A stretch of 32,000 bases of DNA from Candidatus Methanophagaceae archaeon GoMg2. Its GTDB lineage: Archaea > Halobacteriota > Syntropharchaeia > Alkanophagales > Methanospirareceae. The stretch covers positions 1 through 32,000 of the forward strand of contig QBUM01000250.1 in NCBI GenBank assembly GCA_013180585.1, read 5' to 3'. A program made the translations under genes and the position numbers. Under the pieces are notes generated by a model that did no database searches, was not told where the DNA came from, and saw only the letters and a list, made by a program, of their open reading frames with translations. Shown one piece after another: positions 13,289 through 23,543 of this stretch (position 1 is its first letter; each line of letters opens with the position of its first letter).

Positions 13289-14215
13289 CTACACCCGCTC
13301 CAACCATCTCATATATCGCTCTTCTTTCGCATTCACGATGTCAAAGAACTTCCTTTGTATCGCACCTGTCACTTCGCCCCTCTTGCCTATCCCTATTATT
13401 ACATTGTCTATCTCTCGTATCGGCGACACTTCTGCTGCGGTGCCCGTGAAAAAAACTTCATCGGCTGATAATAACTCCTCCTTCTTTATGCTTTTCTCTA
13501 CCACTTCATACCCCATATCACGTGCGAGCTCGATTACGGACGCCCTGGTGATGCCAGGAAGAATAGAAGATTCTATCGCAGGTGTGTATAGAGTTGCGTT
13601 TTTTACTGCGAATATATTCTCGCCCGGACCTTCCGCTACGTAGCCTTTATTGTCGAGCAATATCGCCTCGTCAACTCCCTGTTCCTTAGCTTCATGTACT
13701 GCTAACATCGAATTCAGATAATGCCCCGTAGCTTTTGCCGTGACGGGCAATGTATTGGGGTCTATCCTTCGCCATGATGAGAATGCACATCTTATACCGT
13801 TCTCCAACGCATCATCGCCAAGATAAGCGCCCCAACGCCATGCTGCAACTGCACAATCCACAGGACAGCCCGCAGGGTTCACGCCTAAATGATGGAACCC
13901 ATAGAAAGCGATTGGCCTTATGTAGCACGCATCAAGTCCGTTTATACGAACCGTCCCTTTTATAGCTTCTGTCAGCTCTTCCTTCGAGTAAGGGATTTCC
14001 ATCTTGTACAACTCCGCTGACCGATACATCCTATCCACATGTTCCTTCAGCCGGAAGATAAACGAACCTTTGGCCGTGGCATAGCATCTTATCCCCTCAA
14101 AAACACCCGACCCGTAATGCAAACCATGCGCGAGCACGTGTACTGTGGCTTCTTCCCAATCCACAAATTTGCCGTTATACCATATTTTTCCCGATTCTGG
14201 TAGTCGCTCCACCAT
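13289..14215 (-). CDS. ilvE: Branched-chain amino acid aminotransferase
   Basis: MVERLPESGKIWYNGKFVDWEEATVHVLAHGLHYGSGVFEGIRCY...EGPGENIF...TPAIESSILPGITR. The track ORF extends to a TTG at 14236; the ATG at 14215 is preferred. Confidence 0.85.
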   Translation of the reverse strand: MVERLPESGKIWYNGKFVDWEEATVHVLAHGLHYGSGVFEGIRCYATAKGSFIFRLKEHVDRMYRSAELYKMEIPYSKEELTEAIKGTVRINGLDACYIRPIAFYGFHHLGVNPAGCPVDCAVAAWRWGAYLGDDALENGIRCAFSSWRRIDPNTLPVTAKATGHYLNSMLAVHEAKEQGVDEAILLDNKGYVAEGPGENIFAVKNATLYTPAIESSILPGITRASVIELARDMGYEVVEKSIKKEELLSADEVFFTGTAAEVSPIREIDNVIIGIGKRGEVTGAIQRKFFDIVNAKEERYMRWLERV

Positions 14216-14263
14216 TTTTATCGCCTCTGAAAGCAATGTCTTAATAAATTCTACATGTTTCTA

Positions 14264-15701: not shown

Positions 15702-15791
15702 AAATGCAAAGAAAGAGAGAGAGTTGAAAAACGTTTAACTATTCCAACTTATTTTACAGTGCGAGAATAAAAACAAAAAGGGAAGACGGCC

Positions 15792-17435
15792 TTATCTACG
15801 TCTTCCTATCATACCTCTTATTGCAACCAGACTCAGCAGTCCAATCAAAGCTGCGATACCTACCGGCATAAGCACTGGTAGCTCTGGAACCCCTCTGATC
15901 TTTGTTATCGCCGACCGATCTATAGGCTCTGTCTCATCGGTAGTCAGGATAGCGGTATTGTTTATGACTGTTCCAGCAGGCACAAAAGCATTTATTTTGG
16001 CTTTAAACGTTGCATCTCCGCCTACTCCGGATGCCAACGTGCCTATATCCCATATCAGCGTGTTATTCACAGGATAATAGGTTCCCGCGTCATCATCCGC
16101 TGCGTCGGTTAGATCAACGCCGTTTAAGCCCATGCTTTCTGATATGTAAGTGGTGTTCGCTGGTATCGTATCATGTATCGTAGCGTTCGTAAGCGTTCCG
16201 GCTCCGATATTGTTATAGTGTATCCGGTAACTGAGCGTGTCATTGGAAGAAGCAAAGCTCTTATCAACCGTCTTATACGCAGATAGTTCAAAACTCGGTA
16301 ACACTAAAACCGTCGTATTCACAGAGGCGTTTTTCGGTTCTGTTTCATTTGTGTCTATCGTGGCGGTATTGGTTATTAACGTATTATTTGTGAGATAATC
16401 GTGAACCGTTACATCGAACGATTGCGTTCCCTCTGCTCCAATCAACAAGTTGCCTATGTTCCAGACGATTCTGCCCACATCTACTTTTCCACCACCGGAT
16501 ATGCTTCCATCAACTAAAGTGGTATCTGTGGGAATCGGGTCGGTTAAAATGACTTCTGTAAGGTCTTCGTTATCATCGTTCCTATAGGTTATTGTATAGC
16601 TTAGCACGTCACTACAGTTGCATGTTGGTTTACTGACGTTCTTAGTGATGCTGACATGTGGTTTTAATTCCCTTTGCATCTTCTCTTTTATTGCTTCAGG
16701 GAAAGCCTCCCAATTTGGAGCTTCCATGTAAAACCCGGAATGATTAGCTGGTTTTAGCGAATAATTCAACTTAACCAAGAATTCACGGTTATATGGCTGC
16801 GCGGGTGGGTGAGCTTCATCAATGACATCAACACCGAGAACGTTCACTTCGTCAAAATAGCCTTTAAATATCGCATCATCCCTCGCTTCATATGTTGCAT
16901 CTACGGCCGGTTGGTATTCTTCCCTATTTCCACCACATATCCAATTTGGTCGCCCATCTGTTGATATATCTATTATTTGCCTAACATTCGGAGAGGTATT
17001 TCCTCTTGTGACGTAATCCGTTAAGGTTTCGTTCGCTAATGTGAATGCTCTTGGCATTGGGGTATGATCCCCGGGCTGCGGCATAGCCAATATGGTGTCA
17101 GCGATGGAATCGGCAACGGTCTGGTTTGTGATTGTTGTAAGGGGCACTTCCACATTAGCGTAATATGGTGGGGAACGTGGCCCCTTAATACGGTTAGGGG
17201 GGAAATACCCAAACATGATTACACAAACTGAGATATCACCATTTTGTGGAGTTACCGATGAGTTTGATATAGCATCAGCGTATCCGTTCAATTGTATAGA
17301 ATAGTTCGCAGGGCTAATGCTATTGGACCCATCCAGTATCAAGAACAAATCCACCTTTTCCGCTGCGCTCACTCCTGTCAATGCAAAAGCAGAAATCACT
17401 AAAATCGCTGCAATAAATATTCCTCTTCCTTTCAT
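15792..17435 (-). CDS. Surface glycoprotein: signal peptide, vWA (MIDAS) domain, 2 DUF11 repeats, non-PGF C-terminal sorting signal
   Basis: Signal MKGRGIFIAAILVISAFALTGVSAAE; vWA motifs LILDGSNS and IIDISTDG; DUF11-like SYTITYRNDDNEDLTEVILTDPIP and SYRIHYNNIGAGTLTNATIHDTIP; about 18 N-x-S/T sequons; tail GVPELPVLMPVGIAALIGLLSLVAIRGMIGRRR. Confidence 0.8.
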   Translation of the reverse strand: MKGRGIFIAAILVISAFALTGVSAAEKVDLFLILDGSNSISPANYSIQLNGYADAISNSSVTPQNGDISVCVIMFGYFPPNRIKGPRSPPYYANVEVPLTTITNQTVADSIADTILAMPQPGDHTPMPRAFTLANETLTDYVTRGNTSPNVRQIIDISTDGRPNWICGGNREEYQPAVDATYEARDDAIFKGYFDEVNVLGVDVIDEAHPPAQPYNREFLVKLNYSLKPANHSGFYMEAPNWEAFPEAIKEKMQRELKPHVSITKNVSKPTCNCSDVLSYTITYRNDDNEDLTEVILTDPIPTDTTLVDGSISGGGKVDVGRIVWNIGNLLIGAEGTQSFDVTVHDYLTNNTLITNTATIDTNETEPKNASVNTTVLVLPSFELSAYKTVDKSFASSNDTLSYRIHYNNIGAGTLTNATIHDTIPANTTYISESMGLNGVDLTDAADDDAGTYYPVNNTLIWDIGTLASGVGGDATFKAKINAFVPAGTVINNTAILTTDETEPIDRSAITKIRGVPELPVLMPVGIAALIGLLSLVAIRGMIGRRR

Positions 17436-17575
17436 TTCATCCTCCTTTTTCTGTGTTGTTTCTATATGGTAATAACAGGTTGTTTTATCCCATTATATGC
17501 TTTTCGGGTACATTTCCGGTGGAGATAGCAGGTGTTGGCAAAACAGGTGCGGAACTAGTAAAAATGAATTATAAT

Positions 17576-17736
17576 TTGTATTTGTATAGCTAGGGGTAAA
17601 ACCACGAGATTTCACGAGATTAGCACAAGATTTTGGGGGTTAACATGGGATAAAAAAGCCAATAGTGCACTTAAGCCGGATCCAGAGTATTATCTTCTCG
17701 TGGAAATCTGTGTAATCGGCGGTTAGCTAAGCAAAC
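17576..17736 (+). mobile_element. Family-A MITE-like element, alpha subtype (A2)
   Basis: Collinear with 12018-12178 with few mismatches (..ggggtaaaaccacgagatttcacgagattagcacaaga...ggttagctaagcaaaca). Confidence 0.65.
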
Positions 17737-17823
17737 ACCATGATTTTAATGTCTAAAAACGAGGGAAACGTCCTTTAGTTACTCTTTCTTTTCTAAAGAA
17801 GCGCGTGATTTAAAAAAAGGTAA

Positions 17824-17983
17824 TTGTTTAGCTAACCACAAGATTACACAGATTTTCACGAGAATAGAAGGGCAGTAACCAGATTTTAGTATACCATAGA
17901 CCACATTATCCCACCGTAATCCCTATTTCTTGTGTTAATCTTGTGGAATCTCGTGGTTTTAAAAATTCGCTATACAAATACAA
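17824..17983 (-). mobile_element. Family-A MITE-like element, beta subtype (A3)
   Basis: ttgtttagctaaccacaagattacacagattttcacgagaatagaagg...cttgtgttaatcttgtggaatctcgtggttttaaaaattcgctatacaaatac. About 90% identical by eye to the reverse complement of 26023-26180. Confidence 0.65.
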
Positions 17984-18014
17984 AAAAAGAAAAAAAGAAA
18001 ATTGGTTATTCGTT

Positions 18015-18881: not shown

Positions 18882-21800
18882 TTACGATACTTTGTATGTC
18901 CAGTATGCTTTTCCGGGTTCGAGTTCTTCGCCTGGTGGTCCTGGTATCAACGACATGAAGTCGTATGGATATGGGTATCCGTTCCTGTATTTCAGAATCA
19001 CTGCACTTAGCGGTATATCCTTACCATCCATGCGTAAACTCTCGTTGCCTATACCTATCAGGTTCCAGCCCGTACCTGAATTGTCGTAAATCTCTTGCCA
19101 CGTTAGTGATACACCAGTTCCGTATACTGTAATCTCCTTCGGCGCCCATGGGTTGTACACGTAGTAGCCCTTGCCACCCTCTACTTCACTTGCTTCTGAC
19201 CAGCCCGTTGTTGCATTATAGCTCCATACTTCCACGTCACGACCGAAGATAGCTTCCGTGTTTTTATTGTCTGGTATTACTGGCAGTGATACGTAGTTCT
19301 GTCCCACATCAAGCGGGACGATGAATGGTTTTTTTCCCGGCTCAAATATGGGTATCTCTGGGTCCTTGTTCATGTAGATGCCTGTGCCATCCTCTGGGTT
19401 GTACGTGAATGCGAACCTATCTCTCGCCGGGTATGACTGACCACGGTTCAGGTCGCCTTTTGCATTCGGTGCAAAGAACGAAGTCGTGATTATGTAACAT
19501 CCCGGTTGTGCATTGTTCACCATATCAAACCGTATATCAGGCTCGAATGTGAGCTGATATTCGCCGCCCACGTAAACCTCTGGGTTCAACGAAGGTATCT
19601 CAGGCAGTAGGAATCTGGTGTACTCGTCTGGTATCGTCTGTATATCGAACTTAGTCCATGACTCGATAAGACCACTCTCGTTCAGTATCTCTAGCAAGTT
19701 AGTCGAATATCTCGGCTCTGGCTTTTCATCTTTCCAGCAGAACTCCAACGGATCCAGATCCTCTATGATTCGCTCGTCAACGTCGTTTGCAATCCAGTGT
19801 TCGGTGTCAAAGACCGTGAATCTACCAGGCAGCGGCATTGGTATTCCGCATTCGCAACACTGCCAGCCATTTGGCACTGCTACATTTACGTCTCCCGGAT
19901 AGAACGGACCTCCATAGTCACTCCATAACTGCCAATCTGATGGTATACTTGTAGTCATATCTCCGTCTGTATCAATCGGCACTGCACGGAAGAATCTCAA
20001 CCATGCTGCCGGTGGATACTGCATTGTCAGGTAGCGTTCTCCACATGGGAAGTACTCTGTACCTGCTTTTCCGGTATCTCTATCGCCATAAGGCCACTTG
20101 TCCAGTAGTTTCAATGGTTGCCACAGTACCACATCGGTATCGTCCACGAGTTCGTGATCCATGTTCATCGGTGGAAGCACTGGTAGTGCCAATAGCGGAT
20201 AGCAAGGTTTAACTTTCGTGAGCCATTGCGAGTCTGCACATGGCAGATAATGTTGTCTCAGTGTGTATTCGCCATCGTCAAGATACTTCGGAAGTGGTGT
20301 TCTCAATGTTATGTACTTGAACTTCTCACAATCATATCTGTTCCCATCGTTGTCCAGAACCTCTATTGCAGGTATCTCGTATCGCACTCCGTCCACGTAG
20401 AAGATGTCTCCTCTCTGTAATTCTTTACCCACTGTGATCAGTGCCTTATCTCCAGAAAATCGTCCTTCGTAGTTAGCATACCATGTTCTATCTGGATGCT
20501 TTTTTGTTGTTTCGAAACTATGTCTATCGAAGTACTTTCTTTCATTAGTTTTCAAATAGTTTTGTACACCATCTTCTGGTTCGGAATTACCGTAGTACGA
20601 TATGAACACCATCGGATAGCTATCAGATATGTCATATCCATCGAATAGCAGACTGTGGTCAAGGAATTGCACTTCATCGCCTTCCTCCATGATGTACGTC
20701 TTCTCTATACTTATTGTTCCGTTTGTTGTTTTCGGTAGTAACCCGTCCATGTCCGATGGGTCGCAAGATATGTTTGCGAGTCTTACAAGGTTAGTCCTTT
20801 TAGACTCGGCACCTGGGTTCTCAAAAGAATCAAGTCCTATCTGATCCGTTGTTGGATCTGATACGATTGGGAATGGGAACCAACTGCCTACATCTGCATG
20901 ATGTGGTTTCTTGTCCTGCGAATCAATAAGCATATAAGTTGTCTCGATAACTATTGCTGGTGCTAACCCAATCATCTCATGCCAGCCATAGAACTCGTAC
21001 TCGGGCACATACCATACTCTTAAGTACTCCTTCAGGTCACTGTTTTCATCCTGTGCATTTGTTGGATACTCTGGGCTGTGTCGTAGTATCGCTGCATCAA
21101 AGGTGATCGAATCCTTTCTTATCGCAGTCGGATTGAAAGGCTCTTCCCAGCTCACGTATTGCTCGATATTGCAGCTATTGTTAATTCCAAACGTGCTATC
21201 ACTACCATTACCGTATATCTTCACTGTGCCTTTCTTTAGCTCTTCATCATAGTACACATAGATGTCATTACCGTCCTCTCCGTCCTTCTGATCGTATGAG
21301 AACGCGACTCTCTGTTCAGTGGGATCTCCACCTCTTTTGTTGTCGTACAAATCTCCTGTTGCTTGCGGTGCAATCCACGAAGTCGTGATGATGTAATCAC
21401 CATCAAGTTCGACCGGCCAGCCACCATCTCTAGGTATTGTATAATAGTCTGGTAGTTCAGGTAGCACGAACATTGTGTACTGGTCTGGTAGAGACTGAAC
21501 ATCGAATTTCGTCCATGACTCTGTTATTAGTCCTCCTGCCTCTTCTCTTATCTTCTCTATGGTTTTATCCACGATGATCTCAGAATTTTCTGCAAATATG
21601 TAGAAACCTGGTGGAATATTCCATGGTTGTGGGTTTGCCAAGCTCTTCAAAAAGTCTTCATCAATCGAGTCCGCAGATTCTCCTAGCCCGAAAACGTTTA
21701 TTACATCAAGTCCCGCATCCAATGAAGCATTTCTCGCTTCCATCGTTGCATCAGCATCTCCGCTTGGTATGCCTCCATCACTGGATATATCAAGTATTTG

Positions 21801-23543
21801 CAGTCTTGCACTGGCATCTGGATTTTCTTCTATGAGTGTTTTTATTTTGTCGAATGCTGCAATCATGTTGGTGCCGCCATCTATTGCGTCCATCGCCCGT
21901 ATCTGTGTCGCAACACTGTTGACTGTGTCAGGTGTTATTGTAGTAAGTGGTACTTCTACCTTGGCAACGTCCGAAAACTGAATCACACACACAGAGACAG
22001 TGCCATCCTGAGGTATTTCGTATATCGCCGAAGCTAAACCTTCTTTCTGCAAATCAAAGTATCCGTGCATAGCCAGGTTTTGTGATGAATCAACAACAAG
22101 GAATAAATCCTTTTGCTCTTTACCTTTCCAGTCTTCTCGCAGCTTCTCCAGTAAATTCGTTGAATATCGCTCTTCTACTTGCTCTTCGATGTATATAACC
22201 TCTAATGGGTCTATGTTATCAATTACTCGCATCTCAACATCGTATGCGATCCAATCGCCCTCGCTGTCTGTAAGTTCTGTACCATCATAATCCTGCCTTG
22301 TCCAGTCTCTTTCTTCTGTAGCATCTGTCCACAACGGTATGTCTATGTCATCAACCATGTCATGGTTCATGTTAAACGGCGGAAGCAGCGGTATTAACTC
22401 TGATTGCGCGATACACTCTATAAACTGTGTAGATACTATGCTCTCATCACGAACAGAATCATCGCCCTTCGGCAGCTTCGTCCTCAGCGTTAGGAACTTG
22501 AAAGCATCCGCTTCACCATCTAGCGGTTGTAATGTATCAAGCACTGCGACTGCCGTTACATCGTATCTTACTGCATCAACGTAGAACACATCGCCCCAGT
22601 TTAGCTCCTTACCGACGTAGATAAGAGGTCCATCCCGGCGTACATACCATGTCCTCATCGGAGTTGTTGTGTCTTCACCGTGATTCGGACTGGGATGCTC
22701 ATTGTTATGACGGTCAAAGTATATTGTTTGTTGAGGACCTATACTGATCCAGCCTTTTTCTGCATCGTCCAGTTTATTTCCTGTATACCCCACTTTTATA
22801 ACGTAGTCATCAGTTTCTTCATTGACCGTGGTGAGTTCCACATAGTGATCGAAGAACCGCACAGTAGATCCTACAACCGGAGTAAATTGCTTCTCGAGAG
22901 TAATGTTTCCCTTTACAGTTGTACCGTCTGGATCTACAATTCCACTAACACTTGCAAGCGTGGTTATGTTGTCAACATTTGTTCCGCTCTTCCATGCACC
23001 GAGTCCCGTCTGTGTATCAATCTCACATGTTGGTACTAAAAATTGTGTCTTTGGTGCTGTGCCCGTTATTGGTAGATACAAAGTGTCCATCAGCATGTAA
23101 GTGTATTCCATGTTTATCGTGGGATGTGTGTCATTCTTTCTCGGACCATTGTACTGACCACAGGGCTCGTACCATGACCTCAAGAATATCTTCTCACGGG
23201 CGTTCTCTGGACTGCCGATCGCATTACCTACTAATACACGATAATACGGTTCCCCTTCTTCGTGGCTCTCTTCAATAATCGCTGGATTGTACGTGATCGA
23301 ATCTTTTGGTATTACTGTCGGGTCAAATGGGTCTTCAAAATTGATATATCGCTCTGGTGCATTCCCATGTGGTTGCACGTCACCGTATATCCTTACCGAA
23401 GAAGCAGGTTCTTCCTCTGGAGGAAACCCCCCATTCGTTCCTGCCATACTGGTAGGCGCGACCATAGCAAATATCGAAGCGACCATTATCGCCGCCATTG
23501 CTATCCCTACTATCACTTTTCCTTCTCTTACTTTTGTTTTCAT
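18882..23543 (-). CDS. Giant secreted protein (1553 aa): two tandem copies of an uncharacterised ~650-aa module, a vWA domain inserted in copy 1, and a distinct C-terminal beta-rich domain
   Basis: Single uninterrupted track ORF; signal peptide MKTKVREGKVIVGIAMAAIMVASIFAMVAPTSMAG; SD aggagg. The internal duplication and vWA motifs are detailed in the findings. Confidence 0.9.
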   Translation of the reverse strand: MKTKVREGKVIVGIAMAAIMVASIFAMVAPTSMAGTNGGFPPEEEPASSVRIYGDVQPHGNAPERYINFEDPFDPTVIPKDSITYNPAIIEESHEEGEPYYRVLVGNAIGSPENAREKIFLRSWYEPCGQYNGPRKNDTHPTINMEYTYMLMDTLYLPITGTAPKTQFLVPTCEIDTQTGLGAWKSGTNVDNITTLASVSGIVDPDGTTVKGNITLEKQFTPVVGSTVRFFDHYVELTTVNEETDDYVIKVGYTGNKLDDAEKGWISIGPQQTIYFDRHNNEHPSPNHGEDTTTPMRTWYVRRDGPLIYVGKELNWGDVFYVDAVRYDVTAVAVLDTLQPLDGEADAFKFLTLRTKLPKGDDSVRDESIVSTQFIECIAQSELIPLLPPFNMNHDMVDDIDIPLWTDATEERDWTRQDYDGTELTDSEGDWIAYDVEMRVIDNIDPLEVIYIEEQVEERYSTNLLEKLREDWKGKEQKDLFLVVDSSQNLAMHGYFDLQKEGLASAIYEIPQDGTVSVCVIQFSDVAKVEVPLTTITPDTVNSVATQIRAMDAIDGGTNMIAAFDKIKTLIEENPDASARLQILDISSDGGIPSGDADATMEARNASLDAGLDVINVFGLGESADSIDEDFLKSLANPQPWNIPPGFYIFAENSEIIVDKTIEKIREEAGGLITESWTKFDVQSLPDQYTMFVLPELPDYYTIPRDGGWPVELDGDYIITTSWIAPQATGDLYDNKRGGDPTEQRVAFSYDQKDGEDGNDIYVYYDEELKKGTVKIYGNGSDSTFGINNSCNIEQYVSWEEPFNPTAIRKDSITFDAAILRHSPEYPTNAQDENSDLKEYLRVWYVPEYEFYGWHEMIGLAPAIVIETTYMLIDSQDKKPHHADVGSWFPFPIVSDPTTDQIGLDSFENPGAESKRTNLVRLANISCDPSDMDGLLPKTTNGTISIEKTYIMEEGDEVQFLDHSLLFDGYDISDSYPMVFISYYGNSEPEDGVQNYLKTNERKYFDRHSFETTKKHPDRTWYANYEGRFSGDKALITVGKELQRGDIFYVDGVRYEIPAIEVLDNDGNRYDCEKFKYITLRTPLPKYLDDGEYTLRQHYLPCADSQWLTKVKPCYPLLALPVLPPMNMDHELVDDTDVVLWQPLKLLDKWPYGDRDTGKAGTEYFPCGERYLTMQYPPAAWLRFFRAVPIDTDGDMTTSIPSDWQLWSDYGGPFYPGDVNVAVPNGWQCCECGIPMPLPGRFTVFDTEHWIANDVDERIIEDLDPLEFCWKDEKPEPRYSTNLLEILNESGLIESWTKFDIQTIPDEYTRFLLPEIPSLNPEVYVGGEYQLTFEPDIRFDMVNNAQPGCYIITTSFFAPNAKGDLNRGQSYPARDRFAFTYNPEDGTGIYMNKDPEIPIFEPGKKPFIVPLDVGQNYVSLPVIPDNKNTEAIFGRDVEVWSYNATTGWSEASEVEGGKGYYVYNPWAPKEITVYGTGVSLTWQEIYDNSGTGWNLIGIGNESLRMDGKDIPLSAVILKYRNGYPYPYDFMSLIPGPPGEELEPGKAYWTYKVS

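Follow-up and report, generated by a model that had tools for sequence, protein, structure and literature searches.

A VPXXXP-CTERM-like tail and an ArtB-like archaeosortase in a putative surface protein locus of Methanophagales (ANME-1) archaea

To our knowledge, ArtA is the only archaeosortase that has been studied experimentally, and we know of no such study of archaeosortase B (ArtB). The ArtB/VPXXXP-CTERM system (TIGR04144 and TIGR04143, respectively) is said to have been defined in silico, in Methanosarcinales, by Haft, Payne, and Selengut in 2012. ArtA cuts its substrates and then attaches them to lipid (PMC7157517). Here we describe a diverged form of the ArtB system, found in a stretch of 32,000 nucleotides, referred to below as the window (GenBank assembly GCA_013180585.1, contig QBUM01000250.1, positions 1 to 32,000), from “Candidatus Methanophagaceae archaeon GoMg2,” a member of the Methanophagales, or anaerobic methanotrophic archaea of group 1 (ANME-1). 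The 2.19-Mb assembly that holds it, with the window on contig C112, is 79% complete. The target gene, at positions 15792 to 17435 of the reverse strand, encodes a protein with a von Willebrand factor A (vWA) domain, two DUF11 domains, and a C-terminal tail, and is followed by a gene for a small archaeosortase. ANME-1 archaea are uncultured and play a key role in the marine methane sink; little is known about their envelope or about cell-to-cell contacts.

As a frame for the comparison, the TIGR04144 model was run on 401 Halobacteriota genomes. Scores above the cut-off were obtained in only 14 genomes, all from one Methanosarcinaceae-like family (185 to 315 bits), while ANME-1 and a few other lineages make up a separate tier of no more than 129 bits (94 to 129 bits in ANME-1). 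Four of the bona fide ArtB genomes were examined for tails and gene order. A tail-bearing gene is found directly upstream of ArtB in all four of them (the tail in genome G132 scores 19.5 bits), and three contain VPXXXP-CTERM tails above the curated cut-off (30 to 54 bits). The ArtB-adjacent tails read NGVPAMTPIGLVALIG..RRRD, VPALTPTSL.., VPVMTPAGL.., and VPLLTPVGI.., the motif in the first being VPAMTPIG, and the proteins that carry them in Methanosarcinaceae have DUF7507/DUF11 domains without a vWA domain. The motif VPx(L/M)TPxG is common to these bona fide ArtB tails and to the ANME-1 tail class described below.

The C-terminal tail and its class

The target protein ends in ..LPVLMPVGIAALIGLLSLVAIRGMIGRRR, and its C terminus as a whole reads RGVPELPVLMPVGIAALIGLLSLVAIRGMIGRRR. 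The LPVLMPVG motif is followed by a transmembrane (TM) helix, VGIAALIGLLSLVAI, by RGMIGRRR, and by the stop codon, which places the basic cluster at the extreme C terminus. An earlier reading of the window from its sequence alone (the original prediction) had described precisely this layout of motif, TM helix, and basic cluster and had called it non-PGF; the tail is as quoted there and has no match to the PGF-CTERM model. It is retained in all 25 full-length orthologues of the target, in which the motif grades from VPVLTP(I/V)GI in the most distant proteins through VPVLMPAGL and VPLLLPVGI to the LPV(L/I)MPVGI of the target. An alignment of eight tails has an invariant P, a G at +6, an L, and a second G. 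The residues that precede the motif, VPEL in the target, vary freely. A reading of the tail as a VPEL/PEF-CTERM signal, which draws 9.9 bits on VPEL.., was rejected: VPEL is replaced by EPAP, PPIL, or QPSE in orthologues that keep LPV(L/I)xxVG.

A profile built from the eight-tail alignment was run on 61 Methanophagales genomes and yielded over 150 matches, spread over 40 of these genomes, with a maximum of 14 per genome. All 20 matches that were fetched lie at the extreme C terminus, on several different kinds of protein, and read (V/A)PxLTPxG(L/I)xAL(I/V)GLLS..., followed by a basic cluster and a stop codon. Three such tails are found in the genome of the target: its own, one on a 421-residue protein (contig C1; IPTLMPVGI...), and one on a 177-residue protein (contig C233; VPALTPAGI...). 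The profile does not match the approximately 15 PGF-CTERM tails or the 8 PEP/PEF-like tails of the same genome and is therefore specific. When applied to the bona fide ArtB genomes, it matches exactly the ArtB-adjacent tails (30.6, 20.8, and 18.9 bits), and when the target is compared pairwise with ArtB-adjacent substrates of other genera, significant similarity is confined to the tail. These observations support the assignment of the tail to a class of predicted sorting signals rather than to ordinary anchors.

Canonical ANME-1 tails (P0140, P0130, P0123, and others) also give weak matches, of 12 to 22 bits against a cut-off of 45, to positions ~30 to 64, the signal part, of NF033207, the “midcut-by-XrtH protein” model. 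This hints that the recognition sequences of XrtH and ArtB may be related.

The adjacent archaeosortase, its partner, and their distribution

The sortase open reading frame (ORF) begins exactly 90 nucleotides past the stop codon of the target, where the original prediction had put it, and its product matches the exosortase/archaeosortase signature TIGR04178 with 60.4 bits (cut-off, 23). The best score from any sortase model is that of ArtB (TIGR04144), 108.7 bits, short of the cut-off of 150. The XrtH model (TIGR04177) gives 82.4 bits (cut-off of 86, not reached), and the ArtA model gives 32.3 bits (cut-off, 75). Relatives of this sortase with 47 to 71% identity do exceed the XrtH cut-off (90.7 to 104.8 bits), and its homologues are named either “archaeosortase B (VPXXXP-CTERM-specific)” (JGI) or “exosortase H” (NCBI) in public databases. 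Eighteen sequences, true ArtB among them, all have the three predicted catalytic residues, C117, R158, and H177. Membership of the tails in the IPTL-CTERM class was rejected: the best TIGR04174 match in the genome scores 12.6 bits in an unrelated place (cut-off, 20.5). The sortase had been described as the target gene's “own”; with three such tails in this genome and up to 14 in related ones, that description does not hold.

In six genomes of genus g1 and three of genus g3, the vWA-DUF11 gene lies directly upstream of the sortase gene, and in genus g9 a 242-residue tail-bearing protein is encoded two genes upstream. A third gene, for a multi-TM protein whose membrane part contains no Cys, follows the sortase gene in 23 of 24 loci, as distant as Archaeoglobus (loci L018 to L020 and L106 to L113 among them), and a homologue follows true ArtB in 8 of 14 loci (E values of 1e-8 to 1e-13). 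Among close relatives, this partner has invariant N98-F-N100, T111-P112, H134, and D137. No family in Pfam or NCBIfam matches it, and all its public names are “hypothetical.” In hhalign, the partner and the sortase family form a single colinear alignment of 145 columns with a probability of 76% (54.5% with wider alignments), so the partner may be a dead paralogue of the sortase. Some versions of it end in a zinc-ribbon-like CPVC...H..H extension.

The small sortase is patchily distributed, being found in 27 of the 61 Methanophagales genomes. Among the 23 high-quality genomes, tails occur in 12 of 12 with the sortase versus 5 of 11 without it, with means of 5.7 and 1.0 tails per genome. A one-sided Fisher test of this co-occurrence gives ~0.005, a value that overstates the support because the genomes are kin.

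Two further enzymes of the superfamily have to be considered in these organisms. A review states that ANME-1 lack ArtA (PMC5244752). This is contradicted by our finding of ArtA above the cut-off in 54 of the 61 genomes, among them the full set of 23 high-quality genomes and all six congeners of the target organism. The idea that the small sortase is the missing PGF-CTERM enzyme, raised by the absence of ArtA from the target's own assembly, was therefore dropped; in this 79%-complete assembly, ArtA is simply unassembled. ArtA presumably serves the PGF class. The same genome also encodes a 280-residue, bacterial-type exosortase of the 8TM EpsH family (Table 1), which is found in 34 of the 61 genomes, together with eight (I/V)PE(F/L/W) tails, three of which pass the PEF-CTERM model. 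In genome G007, PEP/PEL-type tails and an EpsI-like gene directly adjoin the EpsH-type gene. There is no association between the EpsH-type enzyme and VPxLTPxG tails, which occur in 10 of 13 genomes with the enzyme versus 7 of 10 without it. On these two grounds, the EpsH-type exosortase was rejected as the processing enzyme.

Domain architecture, vWA relatives, and the surrounding cassette

The target ORF has an ATG start codon with GGAGG 7 nucleotides 5′ of it. The original prediction had compared the vWA domain with the DUF1194 type and noted a perfect start of the metal ion-dependent adhesion site (MIDAS). Both statements are borne out: DUF1194 (PF06707) and DUF11 (PF01345) models score above their cut-offs, and DGSNS is found at residues 35 to 39. 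The MIDAS comprises D35-x-S37-x-S39, T125, and D156/D160. D35, S37, and S39 are retained across orthologues, and D35, S39, T125, D156, and D160 are invariant columns in an alignment of 18 orthologues. DUF11 is present in two copies (PF01345, 90.4 bits; second score, for PF01345/TIGR01451, 84.6 bits). As a side observation, the second copy (residues 388 to 499) passes the TIGR04226 model of isopeptide-forming fimbrial domains with 32.5 bits against a cut-off of 30. The sequence contains 18 N-x-S/T sequons versus the expected 6.2 ± 2.2 (none of 5000 shuffles reached 18), which puts it at the 97.8th percentile among ORFs of its genome and supports the proposal that the protein is a glycoprotein. 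Public names of the orthologues do not go beyond “hypothetical,” “DUF1194 domain-containing,” and “TIGR01451 repeat protein.”

The AlphaFold model, built from the alignment of 18 orthologues (Table 1), has an α/β vWA head with the alternating strands and helices of a Rossmann-like fold, two β-sandwiches, and a terminal TM helix at residues 524 to 543; the predicted signal peptide region is helical, with a low predicted local distance difference test (pLDDT) score. Over its whole length, the fold is matched best by two sortase-dependent pilus-tip adhesins, SpaC (6m48) and RrgA (2ww8), with template-modeling (TM) scores of no more than 0.35.

Table 1. Features of the locus and of a second exosortase gene in the same genome
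Feature	Coordinates	Strand	Details and evidence
vWA-DUF11 protein, putative surface protein (target)	15792..17435	-	547-aa ORF; domain matches; 25 orthologues; AlphaFold (AF2) model, pLDDT 81.8
Predicted Sec-type signal peptide, aa 1-24	17364..17435	-	MKGRGIFIAAILVISAFALTGVSA, then AEK; inferred by eye from basic n-region, hydrophobic core, and VSA
DUF1194-type vWA domain, aa 27-259	16659..17357	-	PF06707, 56.1 bits (cut-off, 27); six-frame search, 56.5 bits
DUF11 β-sandwich 1, aa 261-375	16311..16655	-	PF01345, best stretch 261-375; all-β in model
DUF11/DUF7619 β-sandwich 2, aa 388-505	15921..16274	-	TIGR01451, 388-440; PF24595, 393-505; TIGR04226, 388-499
Putative tripartite sorting tail, aa 514-547	15795..15896	-	LPVLMPVG, TM helix, RGMIGRRR; alignment A1, class spread, VPXXXP-like motif
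8-bp hairpin over stop codon, then T-run (possible terminator)	15766..15806	-	Fold, -11.2 kcal/mol; z = -0.64
Small archaeosortase, ArtB/XrtH-like, 206 aa	15081..15701	-	Predicted catalytic C117, R158, H177; TIGR04144, TIGR04177, TIGR04178
Cys-less multi-TM partner, 184 aa	14540..15094	-	Overlaps sortase gene by 14 nt
PGF-CTERM Ig-like protein, 241 aa	18015..18740	-	Upstream neighbor, different sorting class; PF18204, 27.9 bits (cut-off, 18.8)
vWA insert, aa ~471-675 of 1553-aa giant protein (gene 18882-23543)	21519..22133	-	VWA_2, VWA, and DUF1194 matches, aa 479-639
EpsH-type exosortase	G000:C192:12167-13006 (L001:1462-2304)	-	8TM_EpsH, 130 bits (cut-off, 105.55)

A second vWA domain is encoded within the gene for the giant protein (Table 1). 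The original prediction had regarded the two vWA domains as paralogues on the basis of shared strings, all of which are present, and had pointed to a weakened MIDAS in the insert, which indeed carries DSSQN. The homologous giant protein in locus L017 (1,423 residues) lacks exactly residues ~471 to 675, which makes the vWA domain a true, lineage-specific insert. The two domains are homologous, with 33% identity over 236 residues in BLASTP (E value, 1e-20). An exhaustive HMMER search returned 350 relatives, and a tree of 87 domains places the two in one 18-member clade with a support of 98 in the Shimodaira-Hasegawa-like approximate likelihood ratio test. Within the clade, they are not nearest relatives: the target joins its orthologues first and P0127 next, and the insert forms a long branch amid proteins that are 45 to 47% identical to it (33% for the target). 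Constraining the two as sisters costs 42.9 log-likelihood units (approximately unbiased test, P = 0.059). The reading of the two domains as sister paralogues was set aside because the tree separates them, and the P value neither shows nor rejects sisterhood. Tails of the VPxLTPxG type are found on seven members of the clade and PGF-CTERM on one; the vWA family would therefore habitually be displayed via this sorting class.

Three loci without a vWA-DUF11 gene (L058, L060, and L065) have genes for a giant protein and a PGF-CTERM protein directly upstream of the sortase gene. The intergenic region of 580 nucleotides upstream of the target gene (positions 17436 to 18014) contains repeated elements, ..cacgagattccacaagatt.., and inverted copies of them. 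Downstream of the partner lies a branched-chain-aminotransferase-like gene (positions 13289 to 14236, reverse strand; its product ends in ..RYMRWLERV), which occupies the same position in loci L013 to L016 and shows where the surface cassette ends.

Proposed processing, rival explanations, and comparison with known systems

We consider it likely that the target is a Sec-exported, probably N-glycosylated vWA adhesin whose VPXXXP-type tail is cut by the adjacent ArtB-like sortase and passed to an acceptor. The Sec signal peptide would carry the protein across the membrane, the metal-dependent vWA head with its intact MIDAS could bind a ligand, and the two DUF11 domains, which are immunoglobulin-like (Ig-like), may act as a stalk. 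The tail, comprising LPVLMPVG, the TM helix, and RRR, would retain the protein in the membrane, and the adjoining small archaeosortase, possibly together with its Cys-less partner, would recognize it. On the model of ArtA and the exosortases, the Cys/Arg/His site would then cut at or near the motif, and the mature protein would be handed to an acceptor in the membrane or envelope, or to a lipid. What the sequence comparisons show is the domain make-up, the tail class with its VPXXXP-CTERM motif, the conserved gene order, and the co-occurrence of tail and sortase; export, glycosylation, cleavage, acceptor, and ligand are inferred from them.

Several observations weigh against this proposal. The TIGR04143 model finds nothing in the target tail even at an E value of up to 10 (cut-off, 30 bits) and gives only 12 to 19 bits for canonical ANME-1 tails and 9.4 to 13 bits for the paralogue in the same genome (L005); indeed, the curated PGF, VPXXXP, and IPTL C-terminal models are all without a match on the target tail. 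The motif begins with L rather than V (L-P-V-L-M-P), although this change is conservative, and one orthologue has lost its second P (LPVLTS). To these add the sub-threshold ArtB score of the sortase and the kinship behind the co-occurrence test. Genomes G007 and G012, which are 97% and 92% complete, carry four such tails each with no detectable small sortase, and the T-run past the stop codon of the target may terminate the transcript before the sortase gene. The hairpin at the stop codon was discarded as a terminator, as it folds no better than shuffled sequences. The VPXXXP/ArtB reading of LPVLMP in the original prediction thus stands in substance, through the shared (V/A)PxLTPxG motif, and falls below the curated cut-offs for both the tail and the sortase.

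The same silence of the curated models, the nearly complete genomes (92 to 97%) with tails and no small sortase, and the T-run between the two genes would suit an uncleaved C-terminal membrane anchor, in which the motif reflects packing or insertion and the adjacency of the sortase is incidental. We judge this unlikely. The P and G residues are invariant and are held at a fixed spacing just outside the TM helix across unrelated proteins, the motif and the substrate-sortase-partner order recur in another archaeal family with bona fide ArtB, and every one of the high-quality genomes with the sortase has such tails.

Slightly less probable still is a true sorting signal that is processed by ArtA or by the EpsH-type exosortase, with the small sortase acting on other substrates. 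ArtA, often accompanied by the EpsH-type enzyme, does occur in genomes with tails and no small sortase, and in G007 a distance of 3 kb separates a variant tail (VPVFNTVG) from the EpsH-type gene. However, that gene has its own flanking PEP/PEL-type tails and EpsI-like gene, the enzyme shows no association with the tail class, and ArtA is near-universal where the tails are patchy, whereas two ANME-1 genera and each of the four bona fide ArtB genomes inspected have the substrate gene immediately before that of the small sortase. About as doubtful, in our view, is a bolder scheme in which ArtB-type sortases would form an obligate pair with the Cys-less dead paralogue and, rather than only lipid-anchoring the vWA adhesin in ANME-1, would join it covalently to an envelope formed from the adjacent two-module giant protein and its PGF-anchored partner, or polymerize it in the manner of a pilus tip; if true, the sortase pair, the giant protein, and the PGF partner would constitute a dedicated surface-assembly cassette for the uncharacterized ANME-1 cell coat. 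Least plausible of all is a covalently polymerized fiber with the target as a subunit or tip adhesin and the sortase joining protein to protein: the fold matches to SpaC and RrgA, the pass of the isopeptide-forming domain model on the second DUF11, and the presence of two further surface proteins in the cassette that holds the gene are in its favor, but enzymes of the exosortase family have no relationship to class C sortases, no pilin-like partner bearing a pilin motif was seen, ArtA attaches its substrates to lipid (PMC7157517), and the fold likeness, at such low TM scores, may just reflect a common vWA and Ig-like architecture.

Cleavage by the ArtB-like sortase, as proposed above, would give ANME-1 a third protein-sorting system besides ArtA/PGF-CTERM and the EpsH-type exosortase. 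Its substrate set is definable (up to 14 proteins per genome), and current curated models miss every one of them; new profile models for the tail and for the sortase subfamily would better annotate ANME surface proteomes. The locus-linked substrate is a predicted vWA/MIDAS adhesin and, as such, may serve in contacts with partner bacteria or sister cells. The ArtB/VPXXXP-CTERM system would now reach past the Methanosarcinaceae-like family within the 401 Halobacteriota genomes sampled, and it comes with a conserved, undescribed Cys-less partner.

Among the known systems, the SpaC and RrgA adhesins share with the target a vWA/MIDAS head on Ig-like (CnaB/DUF11-type) domains and a C-terminal signal for a cysteine transpeptidase. 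In contrast to them, the target tail lacks LPXTG, its predicted processing enzyme is unrelated to sortases A to F, and there is no evidence of polymerization. ArtA/PGF-CTERM of Haloferax volcanii is closer, with a three-part tail, an enzyme from the same superfamily that shares the catalytic residues, and glycosylated surface substrates; it differs in the motif and the enzyme subfamily, and ArtA is present separately in most Methanophagales genomes. XrtH/IPTL-CTERM (TIGR04177/TIGR04174, with NF033207) has a sortase of similar size and fold class, and relatives of the target sortase pass its cut-off. Its motif, which we take to be IPTLxxWG, would place P, L, and G in register with VPxLTPxG. However, the target sortase itself stays below the XrtH cut-off and scores higher for ArtB, the genome contains no IPTL-CTERM, and the gene neighborhood agrees with that of ArtB loci, in a comparison made with ArtB rather than XrtH loci.

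The closest likeness is to ArtB itself. Common to both are the VPx(L/M)TPxG motif with a TM helix and a basic end, a small sortase with a Cys/Arg/His site, the gene order of substrate, sortase, and Cys-less partner, several tail-bearing proteins per genome, and an adjacent substrate with DUF11/DUF7507 Ig-like domains before the tail. The differences are sortase scores of 94 to 129 bits versus 185 to 315 for true ArtB (cut-off, 150), tail scores of no more than 19 bits (cut-off, 30), LPVLMP as the motif of the target, and a DUF1194 vWA head that the ANME-1 substrate has gained and its Methanosarcinaceae counterparts lack. By these sequence comparisons, the ANME-1 system is a diverged form of the known ArtB/VPXXXP-CTERM system rather than a new kind: the type of system and the database names for the sortase homologues were already known, and the below-cut-off ANME-1 form and its un-annotated tail are new.

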